Assembly (NCBI GenBank): GCA_951406725.2
Contig: OX597814.1
Span: 9,734,001-9,798,000, forward strand
Length of the DNA stretch: 64,000 nucleotides
Origin: Octopus vulgaris
Lineage: Eukaryota
Direction: 5' to 3'
Position numbers and translations under genes: made by a program. Shown here one piece after another: positions 12,551 through 56,971 of this stretch. Below the pieces are notes generated by a model. The model was given only the letters and a program-made list of their open reading frames with translations, ran no database searches and was not told the origin of the DNA. How positions within the stretch are numbered: the stretch's first letter is position 1; each line of letters starts with the position of its first letter.

Positions 12551-13348
12551 AAGGCAACGAGCTGGCAGAAACGTTAGCACGCCGGGCGAAATGATTAGCG
12601 GTATTTCGTATGCCGCTACGTTCTGAGTTCAAATTCCGCCGAGGTCGACTTTGCCTTTCATCCTTTCGGGGTTGATAAATTAAGTACCAGTTACGCACTG
12701 GGGTCGATATAATCGACTTAATCCGTTTGTCTGTCCTTGTTTGTCCTCTCTGTGTTTAGCTCCTTGTGGGTAGTAAAGAAATAGGTATTTTGTCTGCCGC
12801 TACGTTCCGAGTTCAAATTCCACCGAGGTCGACTTTGCCTTTCAACCTTTCGGGGTCGATAAATTAAGTACCAGTTACGCACGGGGGGGGGGGTGATATA
12901 ATCGACTTAATTCGTTTGTCTGTCCTCTCTGTGTTTAGACCCTTGTGAGTAGTAAAGAAATAGGAATTTTGTCAGCCGCTACGTTCTGAGTTCAAATTCC
13001 GCCGAGGTCGACTTTGCCTTTCATCCTTTCGGGGTCGATTAGATAAGTATCAGTTACGCACTGGGGTTAATATAATCGACTTAATCCCTTTGTCTCTCCT
13101 TGTTTGTCCCCTGTGTGTGTAGCCCCTTGTGGGCAATAAAGAAATAAGGATCGTTAGCATGCCGACCAAAATGTTTAGGCGTATTTCATCTGTCTTTACG
13201 TTCTAAGATCAAATTTCGCCGAGATCGACTTTGCCTTTCATCGCTTCGGGGTCAATGAAATATTGAACGAGATGAGCACTGAGGTCGATCCAATCGAATA
13301 TTCCCCTTCCTCAAAATTTTAGTCCTTGTGTCTATAGAAGAAAGGATG
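12551..13348 (+). mobile_element. SINE family A, ~4 tandem units
   Basis: The core ccgaggtcgactttgcctttca recurs four times at about 175-200 bp spacing. Confidence 0.85.
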
Positions 13349-14851: not shown

Positions 14852-14895
14852 CTGAAGACATATGTTTCTGAGTGTATCGCTCATCGTCAGTTCAG
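14852..14895 (-). ncRNA. Type I hammerhead ribozyme, canonical core, palindromic stem III
   Basis: CUGAA-CUGACGA-UGAGcgauacaCUCA-GAAA-CAUAUG-UC-UUCAG: stem I 5 bp, stem II 4 bp, stem III ACAUAUGU, GUC site. Confidence 0.85.
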
Positions 14896-15143: not shown

Positions 15144-15187
15144 CTGGACTGACGACGAGCAATACACTCAGAAACATATGTCTTCAG
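15144..15187 (+). ncRNA. Type I hammerhead ribozyme (inverted partner of 14852-14895)
   Basis: CUGGA-CUGACGA-cGAGcaauacaCUCa-GAAA-CAUAUG-UC-UUCAG; G-U pair in stem I, mismatch at the base of stem II. Confidence 0.8.
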
Positions 15188-35230: not shown

Positions 35231-36053
35231 CCTATTTCTTTACTGCCCACAATCGGTTAAACCCAGAGTGGACAAACAAGGACAAACAAACGGTATTAAG
35301 TCGACTATATCGACACCAGTGCGTAACTGGTACTTGATTTATCGACCCCGAAAGGATGAAAGGCAAAGTCGACCTCGACGGGAATTTGAACTCATAATGT
35401 AAAGACGGACGAAATACTGCTAAGCATCTTGCCTGTCGTGCTAACGATTCTTATTTCTTTACTGCCCACAAGGGGCTAAACATAGAGAGGACAAACAAGG
35501 GCAGACAAAGGGATTAAGTCGATTACATTGACCCCAGTGCATAACTGGTACTTATTTAATCGACCCCGAAAGGATGAAAGGCAGAGTCGACCTCGCAGAA
35601 TTTGAACTCAGAACGTAGCGGCAGACGAAATACCTATTTCTTTACTACCCACAAGGGGATAAACACAGAGAGGACAAACAAGGACATACAAACGGATTCA
35701 GTCGATTATATCGACCCCAGTGCGTAACTAGTACTTAATTTATCTACCCCGAAAGGATGAAAGGCAAAGTCGACCTCGGCGGAATTTGAACTCAGAACGT
35801 AGCGGCAGGCGAAATACCTATTTCTTTAGTACCCACAAGGGGCTAAACACAGAGAGGACAAATAAAGACAGACAAACAGATTAAGTCGATTATATCGACC
35901 CCAGTGCGTAACTGGTACTTAATTTATCGACCCTGAAAGGATGAAAGGCAAAGTCGACCTCGGCGGAATTTGAACTCAGAACGTAACGGCAGACGAAATA
36001 CCGCTAAGCACTTCGGCCGGCGTGCTAACGTTTTTGCCAGCTCCTCACGCCTT
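35231..36053 (-). mobile_element. SINE family A, 4 tandem units
   Basis: aaaggatgaaaggca(a/g)agtcgacctc occurs four times. Confidence 0.88.
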
Positions 36054-55051: not shown

Positions 55052-55400
55052 ACACACACGCACGCACGCACACACACACACACACACACGCACGCACACA
55101 CACACACATACACGCACGCACGCACACACGCACATACACACACACACACACACACACATGAAAATTGAAAGAAATCAGAAAATGGCACCCCTTTTGCTAA
55201 AGATAAGAATCACCACCCTCTGTCACTTTTGTGATCCCTATTAATTTTGCCTTTAGGTTAATTGCAAATAAAACATCCTTTATAATTTGTTGTTTCCACT
55301 TTTACCGTTTTGGAAATCAGCACACTTTCTCAACGGTTTTTTCTTATAAGACTGACAGAGGTTGTTGGGGTTAACCCTAGGTGTCAAGAGCCGCTGATGA

Positions 55401-55686
55401 GGATTTGGTAGACGGAAACTGAAAGAAACCTGTCGTATATATGTATGTATATATATATGTATGTGTGTATGTGTTTGTGTGTCTGTGTTTGTCCCCCTAG
55501 CATTGATTGACAACCGATGCTGGTGTGTTTACGTCCCCGTCACTTAGCGGTTCGGCAAAAGAGACCGATAGAATAAGTACTGGGCTTACAACGAATAAGT
55601 CCCGGGGTCGATTTGCTCGACTAAAGGCGGTGCTCCAGCATGGCCGCAGTCAAAAATGACTGAAACAAGTAAAAGAGTAAAGAGTA
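55401..55686 (+). mobile_element. SINE family B, 5'-truncated
   Basis: ggatttggtagacggaaac through gtaaaagagtaaagagta. Confidence 0.88.
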
Positions 55687-55726
55687 ATTGGTGCAAATCA
55701 ATGCTTCACCATTTTCACCATTTTCT

Positions 55727-56510
55727 GATTGGCTTGATTTAATTTAATCAGGTTAGTTTACCATTAAACAGTAGATGAAACGGTGCATCGTATAAGAAAT
55801 TACAGGGTAAATGTTTTTTAATTTTCTCCTGGTTAACGGAATTAATGTTATTTTGCGGTTGAAGCTTTGGCTGTTATTTCTAGTGGGTGAATGGCCTATT
55901 ATGGCCGTTCCTTGATTGTGATGTTGAACTTATAAATGGTCTATGACTATTTAATTTTTTCCCACTAGGCCGCTGGTGGCAAAAAAATTCTACAAAATTT
56001 TTTTTGCCACCCTATATTGATTAATTATGAATTTTCTGGTTGATTCCGTAATGGAATCGGCGGCTTATATTTATTTGCTGCCGATAAATTTGGCGCGAGT
56101 TCGATGATTTGAAAATTTTAGGTCAGATATTGCCGAGGCAGGGACAGAAATGCCTCGTGAAAATATCTGTTCCGTTCTGGCTATTTCTTACTGAGGAATC
56201 TAAGGGCCTATGGAAGATTGGCTTGATTTAATTTAATCAGGTTAGTTTACCATTAAACAGTAGATGAAACGGTGCATCGTATAAGAAATTACAGGGTAAA
56301 TGTTTTTTAATTTTCTCCTGGTTAACGGAATTAATGTTATTTTGCGGTTGAAGCTTTGGCTGTTATTTCTAGTGGGTGAATGGCCTATTATGGCCGTTCC
56401 TTGATTGTGATGTTGAACTTATAAATGGTCTATGACTATTTAATTTTTTCCCACTAGGCCGCTGGTGGCAAAAAAATTCTACAAAATTTTTTTTTGCCAC
56501 CCTATATTGA

Positions 56511-56518
<8 letters not shown>
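55727..56518 (+). mobile_element. Partial tandem (1.6 copies) of a 489-bp non-coding HHR-containing unit
   Basis: 55727-56028 is repeated almost exactly at 56216-56518. The HHR lies at 56183-56289, and the element ends in (TA)n. Confidence 0.85.
56183..56289 (+). ncRNA. Type I hammerhead ribozyme with long stem II
   Basis: AUUUCUUA-CUGAGGA-AUCUA[58 nt]UAGAU-GAAA-CGGUGCAUCG-UA-UAAGAAAU: 8-bp stem I, near-palindromic stem III, GUA site at 56281. Confidence 0.85.
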
Positions 56519-56561
<43 letters not shown>

Positions 56562-56819: not shown

Positions 56820-56971
56820 ATTTGTTTCAGTCATTTGACTGCGGCCACGCTGGAGCACCGCCTTTTAGTCGAACAAATCGACCCTAGGACTTATTCTTTG
56901 TAAGCCTAGTACTTATTCTATCGGTCTCTTTTGCTGAACCGCTAAGTTACGGGGACCTAAACACACCAGCA
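56820..56971 (-). mobile_element. SINE family B, 3' fragment
   Basis: ttgtttcagtcatttgactgcggccacgctggagcaccgcc. Confidence 0.85.

Follow-up and report, generated by a model that had tools for sequence, protein, structure and literature searches.

A 490-nt hammerhead repeat of Octopus vulgaris as a probable non-LTR retrozyme with Penelope-like insertion features

Our analysis indicates that an insertion in the window, the 64,000-nt stretch of Octopus vulgaris DNA analysed here, is a young copy of a protein-less 490-nt hammerhead repeat. By every feature testable here, the repeat is a non-LTR retrozyme, for which we infer cleavage, expression and circles from sequence, with covariation and the first-passage run-off as indirect signs of self-cleavage. 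We consider it likely (probability roughly 70%) that this retrozyme is copied into (AT)n by a Penelope-like (PLE) RT/GIY-YIG protein, mostly from circular RNA. The original prediction had proposed a retrozyme-like RNA, and this is supported at the family level by a conserved core, covarying stems and arrays of up to 14 units. That prediction had missed the fixed 3' ends A and B, the (AT)n targeting and the inverted head-to-head arms, features that together point to Penelope-like mobilisation.

The insertion and its hammerhead

The insertion consists of the following parts. Coordinates are those of the window, and q denotes position numbering from window 56030.

55727..56518, + strand: whole insertion, one-armed, 5'-truncated, 1.6 units, terminating at 3' end A
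55727..56028, + strand: first unit, 5'-truncated, with the 3' half of the hammerhead only; cut site after 55792
56029..56518, + strand: one full 490-nt monomer
56519..56558, no strand: (AT)n microsatellite, the target

Positions 55727-56028 and 56216-56518 are identical in 302 of 303 columns, the sole difference being an extra T in a T-run, with 0 substitutions. The predicted near-perfect duplication of about 302 bp at a 489-bp offset was thus confirmed, and the tandem offset is 489 and then 490. The tandem unit is present as proposed, but the full monomer at the locus measures 490 nt, not 489. This one-armed A insertion has its truncation point at q187 and is bordered on the left by sequence other than (AT)n; no second copy of the unit was found elsewhere in the 64-kb window.

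Two inverted copies flank the insertion (55500-55690, + strand; 56830-56970, - strand), and the window also contains 184-bp tandem arrays (1816-2302, 12612-13066 and 35452-36002); we take both the copies and the arrays to be SINE-like. An inverted-repeat pair lies at 14852-14890 and 15149-15187, about 300 bp apart, with CTGANGA words on both strands in each.

Folded as a circle, the 490-nt unit reached -145.1 kcal/mol. Its 60 dinucleotide shuffles gave -110.5 +/- 5.3 (z -6.5) and the antisense strand -104.6 kcal/mol, so the unit is much more strongly structured than either. The unit has no coding capacity according to the ORF listing and no LTR layout according to the insertion architecture. 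The sole frame of at least 50 aa that overlaps it is a 66-aa minus-strand frame running through the TA repeat. A tblastn search of the 64-kb window with the 781-aa PLE protein described below gave no match, and thus no RT plus GIY-YIG ORF of an autonomous PLE.

The hammerhead is composed as follows.

56183..56289, + strand: complete type I hammerhead, from sequence reading, descriptor and covariation
56183-56190 with 56282-56289, + strand: stem I, 8 bp, ATTTCTTA with TAAGAAAT
56191-56197, + strand: core CUGAGGA
56198..56265, + strand: stem II domain, 68 nt, with a 5-bp covarying base (ATCTA/TAGAT), a variable 7x7 internal loop and a distal hairpin
56210..56253, + strand: distal hairpin of stem II, 18 predicted pairs, 5 of them G.U; 15 invariant, none compensatory
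56266-56269, + strand: GAAA
56269..56280, + strand: stem III, self-complementary in all three common variants; can pair two hammerheads
56279-56281, + strand: GUA triplet, predicted cut after A56281

Each element of the hammerhead, including the 68-nt stem II domain, was found where it had been placed, and the first copy keeps only the 3' half with its site at 55792, as foreseen. The motif is not a chance occurrence, since a type I descriptor matched once in the 64-kb window and in 0 of 60 base-shuffled windows. Rfam gave no hammerhead in the window at the gathering score, nor at E values up to 10; the remark that standard searches would miss the ribozyme is therefore valid for Rfam. The sequence CTGATGAG at 55394 was considered as a second hammerhead and rejected, as the descriptor found no stem II. 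Within the circle, folding of the hammerhead is predicted to cost 1.9 kcal/mol relative to the minimum. On the 5' side of the stem II hairpin, the invariant strand reads GATTGGCT (window 56216-56223), a reverse CCAAT box by consensus; a putative promoter inside the ribozyme is possible at this box.

The palindromic helix III allows a double-hammerhead fold, as in the canonical and minimal dimer-forming type I hammerheads of animals and PLEs (PMC4209133). In the octopus unit, helix III has 4 bp as a monomer, compared with 1-2 in those ribozymes, and an internal loop plus a 44-nt hairpin replace loop 2 on helix II, which has 4 bp in canonical and 7-8 bp in minimal forms (PMC4209133).

Family copies and variation in the ribozyme

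A search of the 2.8-Gb genome with the unit gave 1,397 candidate places, of which 40 were scored and yielded 197 matches. Identity was 95-100% among the matches listed (150 of 197), and additional loci form subfamilies at 87-96%. The copies are dispersed on many chromosomes as multi-copy, short head-to-tail tandems, as in retrozymes. Head-to-tail arrays reach 14 units and have no fixed 5' end. No description of the family or of its A/B end rule was found in open-access main texts, the supplements of which may list cephalopod retrozymes.

The unit and its head-to-tail junction also occur in contigs of runs labelled as other organisms, runs that are only guessed to be RNA and whose depths are given no weight as evidence. 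The tandem junction of the family is thus not an assembly artefact. Runs X18 and X2 contain sister hammerheads with different palindromic stem III sequences, suggesting further related families.

Conservation was assessed in 155 loci, counted as loci and not as independent events, with variants scored when present in at least three loci. CUGA-GA and GAAA carry 0 such variants, while 97 of 489 unit positions do carry them; the core is therefore conserved among copies. All four bases occur at N7 (G39/T33/A21/C20), and H17 is A or C (A95/C28), so that the cut triplet alternates between GUA and GUC; variation at both positions is as hammerhead rules allow. Compensatory pairs were found in stem I (AU>GC in 15 loci; AU>GC in 3) and at the base of stem II (AU>GC in 23, CG>UA in 3, UA>CG in 3), and five of the six compensatory changes of the whole monomer fall inside the hammerhead. 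Covariation of stems among genomic copies was thus seen for five pairs across the 155 loci; in a 12-sequence alignment, 5 pairs covaried against 2.0 +/- 0.7 in shuffles, with relatedness inflating the significance. A stem II base pair is broken in eight loci (4+4). Each unit carries a type I hammerhead with an intact core, as in non-LTR retrozymes. Judged from this pattern of variants, the self-cutting motif is maintained by selection.

The distal stem II hairpin is nearly invariant, with 1 of 33 positions variable and 0 compensatory pairs. Its fold is therefore predicted only, and since other stretches of the unit are equally invariant, invariance alone assigns it no function. Variants in predicted hairpin pairs overall comprise 29 breaking, 19 one-sided and 6 compensatory changes; with almost no compensation outside the hammerhead, conservation of those hairpins as structures is not established. 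No version of the family with a short stem II was found in 218 pieces from 63 loci, except for one internally deleted copy.

The repeat resembles metazoan non-LTR retrozymes in several respects: its monomers are non-coding and tandem, each with one type I hammerhead, its GC content is low, it pairs strongly with itself, its hammerhead can fold freely in the circle, and its genome also contains PLEs (Cervera and de la Pena 2020, PMC7229834; Li, Clavereau and Pollet 2026, bioRxiv 10.64898/2026.07.22.740005). The 490-nt monomer is larger than the approximately 170-400 nt of invertebrate retrozymes but falls inside the 51-972 bp of the vertebrate survey, and the unit differs from these retrozymes in its 68-nt stem II domain and in that no pLTR homology was found here (PMC7229834; bioRxiv 10.64898/2026.07.22.740005). 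The fixed A/B ends, inverted arms and target of the octopus unit are absent from the retrozyme descriptions drawn on from these two sources (PMC7229834; bioRxiv 10.64898/2026.07.22.740005).

Fixed 3' ends, target and head-to-head arms

Two 3' ends are used by the family.

56506..56518 (q489 = window 56518), + strand: family 3' end A, used at the locus; 670 exact A+(AT)n ends genome-wide
56400..56411 (about q382, window 56411), + strand: family 3' end B, unused at the locus; 418 exact B+(AT)n ends genome-wide
56412..56518, + strand: 107-nt "tail" between B and A, with two predicted hairpins

Reversed controls for the exact A and B ends gave 0 in the genome. Insertion anatomy was read in 140 loci (40 top hits, 20 pattern pairs and 80 chosen by one end), which contain 143 insertions: 110 two-armed head-to-head, 32 one-armed and 1 complex. 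The family ends abut (AT)n in 240 of 241 cases, giving an AT-rich microsatellite target, and target-site duplications are unreadable here because the target is (AT)n. Among two-armed insertions, 100 of 110 combine A with B and a single non-standard end is present in the other 10; the combinations A+A and B+B do not occur. The A+B share is 80 of 90 after removal of the 20 pair-selected loci, and outward-facing neighbours in unbiased pattern lists of chromosomes 1 and 2 were A+B in 20 of 20 cases. Either arm may be on the left (56 and 44 insertions). At the inner junctions, the coordinates at which the two arms meet differ by no more than 12 nt in 26 of 110 insertions, against 5.6 expected, a pattern resembling the palindromic junctions of PLEs noted in PMC3846280. 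In L072, L083 and L077, arms are cut at q63, q67 and q129 and adjoin sequence that is not (AT)n; these could be secondary insertions into the element.

PLE insertions carry a tail at one end, an inverted 5' copy and a (TA)n target (PMC8557442, PMC3846280), and the tail has been mapped to two internal RT starts (PMC11167929); how the tail and the inverted ends arise is described as still undefined (PMC8557442). The octopus insertions likewise show a tail at one end plus an inverted 5' copy, the tail of 107 nt being longer than published. Young autonomous PLEs of this genome are arranged in the same way, with tails of 40 and about 37 nt. By this analogy, the A/B end pattern is the Penelope "tail" signature at about three times the usual 30-40 nt. 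They share with EN+ Penelope-like insertions the partial tandems, head-to-head inverted arm, one-end tail, (TA)n or AT-rich target and two internal RT starts, and differ in the unit without an ORF, in the 107-nt tail against 30-40 bp and in multi-unit arms on both sides (PMC8557442, PMC3846280, PMC11167929). A further difference is the one-of-each end rule, counted here over 110 insertions.

Template, partner enzyme and proposed cycle

In 57 of 100 insertions the cut site is traversed by each of the two arms, and in 26 each arm is longer than one unit; the maximum arm length is 6,985 bp, and an arm may pass the ribozyme site as many as 14 times. The interval q253-280, directly 3' of the predicted cut and picked after a first look at 80 loci, holds 40 of 238 5' ends against 10-17 in four neighbouring intervals, and the same excess appears in the 60 last-fetched loci (18 against 6-11). 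These ends sit 2-28 nt past the cut, not on it, in an AT-rich hairpin region. Within these 28 nt, 5' ends number 31 of 198 at the first passage and 9 of 190 at later passages (Fisher p 4e-4), and the later passages do not differ from neighbouring intervals (p 0.25). The two arms of one insertion end together within q253-280 in 10 cases out of 100, and five other intervals hold 1-3 such cases each. RT stalling or partial cleavage of multimers should give equal run-off at each passage, and neither fits an excess restricted to the first, which is expected if cleaved linear monomers are mixed with templates that have no end. A minority of cleaved linear monomers and a majority of circles as templates would fit these data. 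Such a mixture matches the linear plus circular RNAs seen on Northern blots of other retrozymes (PMC7229834). The circular template of the original prediction stays inferred, with better support than before.

Of the minor alleles in multi-unit loci, 386 are shared by every unit, 45 are partial and 287 are confined to a single unit (L095, with two insertions, is omitted). This allele sharing would mostly fit one monomer template per insertion. Variants carried by a subset of units occur in several arrays, some with period 2 or 3 (L034, L037, L040, L043, L079, L082), and in L028 (L028:1094-1442) and L070 subfamilies are mixed between arms or units. Neither the subset variants nor these chimeras are explained by a single monomer circle; for a minority, the periodic patterns and the two chimeric loci indicate that templates were multimeric, that templates were switched or that duplication followed later, with the chimeras pointing to template switching or two RNAs per event.

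These variants also favour the foremost alternative, a PLE-dependent element copied from the linear multimeric transcript of a genomic array, in which the hammerhead only trims and no circle is needed. A PLE assayed in vitro used mainly unprocessed RNA as its substrate (PMC11167929), and hammerhead-free PLEs, including families of this genome, also make partial tandems (PMC8557442). However, a partly cleaved multimer should run off similarly at each hammerhead and not at the first passage alone, 11 sample-private variants are fixed across both arms in 7 loci, and there is no fixed 5' start; we regard this alternative as unlikely.

The partner enzyme was sought among 6,136 GIY-YIG candidates, of which the best 150 were scored. 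A young 4.7-kb PLE family has an intact 781-aa RT+GIY-YIG ORF, a (TA)n target and many near-identical copies (L134 = G000:C4:105332000-105341000; L126-L141); it was rejected as the partner, since it has no sequence in common with the unit, its two ends are 40 nt apart and its terminal repeat lacks a CUGANGA core. A second young family (L236-L265; 775-aa frame, same scores at many loci, (TA)n target) was rejected for its lack of common sequence and its tail of about 37 nt. A decayed family (L266-L295), whose terminal region carries a minimal type I hammerhead after a tRNA-like stretch, as judged by eye, likewise has no sequence in common with the unit. Overall, no nucleotide sequence common to the unit and PLE families was found in 30+20+30+30 sampled PLE loci, and the tails of sampled families are 36-40 nt, against 107 nt in the unit. 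Boxes similar to GATTGGCT are present in terminal repeats of young PLEs. Among the sampled PLEs, the clade labels Poseidon-like and, by the CxxC motif described in PMC8557442, Neptune-like are provisional.

It is considerably less probable still that the unit is a detached pseudo-LTR of an unsampled autonomous PLE, with the arrays as its truncated products. Xenopus retrozymes do match PLE pLTRs (bioRxiv 10.64898/2026.07.22.740005), and scoring only the best 150 of 6,136 candidates leaves room for such an element. Against this, arms consist of the unit only in 143 insertions, unit-to-unit junctions leave no space for an ORF, and PLE protein matches occur in 6 of 140 loci, those examined lying apart from the arms and one being a decayed family with a different minimal hammerhead. 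A satellite amplified by duplication of DNA, or an assembly artefact, either one resembling a hammerhead by chance, would suit the higher-order, satellite-like patterns of long one-armed arrays, but is already largely refuted and barely credible given copies with fixed 3' ends at (AT)n dispersed over many chromosomes, ribozyme-specific covariation and the tandem junction in contigs of other runs.

Under the preferred reading, a retrozyme copied by a PLE enzyme mostly from circles, tandem copies would be transcribed, and hammerheads, probably dimerised through the palindromic stem III, would cut out monomers that are ligated into circles. The PLE enzyme, probably as a dimer, would nick both (AT)n strands and prime two cDNAs, one from A and one from B. 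With a circular template, each of them would continue for up to many turns, and with a cleaved linear monomer both would stop near the cut; the first-passage excess there amounts to about 12% of arms. The two cDNA ends would then join head to head, or one arm would be joined alone, as at the locus.

More tentative, with the odds somewhat against it, is the full form of this cycle, in which the genome would record a PLE dimer that obligately primes A on one strand and B on the other from a circle or cleaved monomer, the stem II insert would be a conserved functional module (promoter or protein site) accommodated within a working ribozyme, and the PLE enzyme would have no sequence in common with the unit. 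The hairpins of the tail may, on this reading, shorten its 107 nt to the usual reach of about 40 nt. In a PLE assay, hammerhead cleavage was not required for insertion and the RT start site was equal on both strands (PMC11167929), which counts against the preferred reading. The spread of 5' ends 2-28 nt past the cut, the 36-40-nt PLE tails, the lack of partner sequence in sampled PLEs and the broken stem II base pairs also count against it. PLE mobilisation of animal retrozymes has been based on co-occurrence and pLTR similarity (PMC7229834; bioRxiv 10.64898/2026.07.22.740005).

This family is set apart by its 68-nt stem II, by a 107-nt tail and by the absence of a homologous partner among the PLEs sampled. 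Since non-LTR retrozymes are an already known class, the gain is mechanistic detail and not a new system. The family also includes a hammerhead form that goes undetected by Rfam, and the 490-nt unit offers the existing in vitro PLE assay a substrate with an unusually long tail. The family provides countable insertion-site evidence, including a test that separates circular from linear templates, and, if the full form of the cycle is true, these insertions would preserve a fossil record from which cleavage and circularisation in vivo could be estimated.
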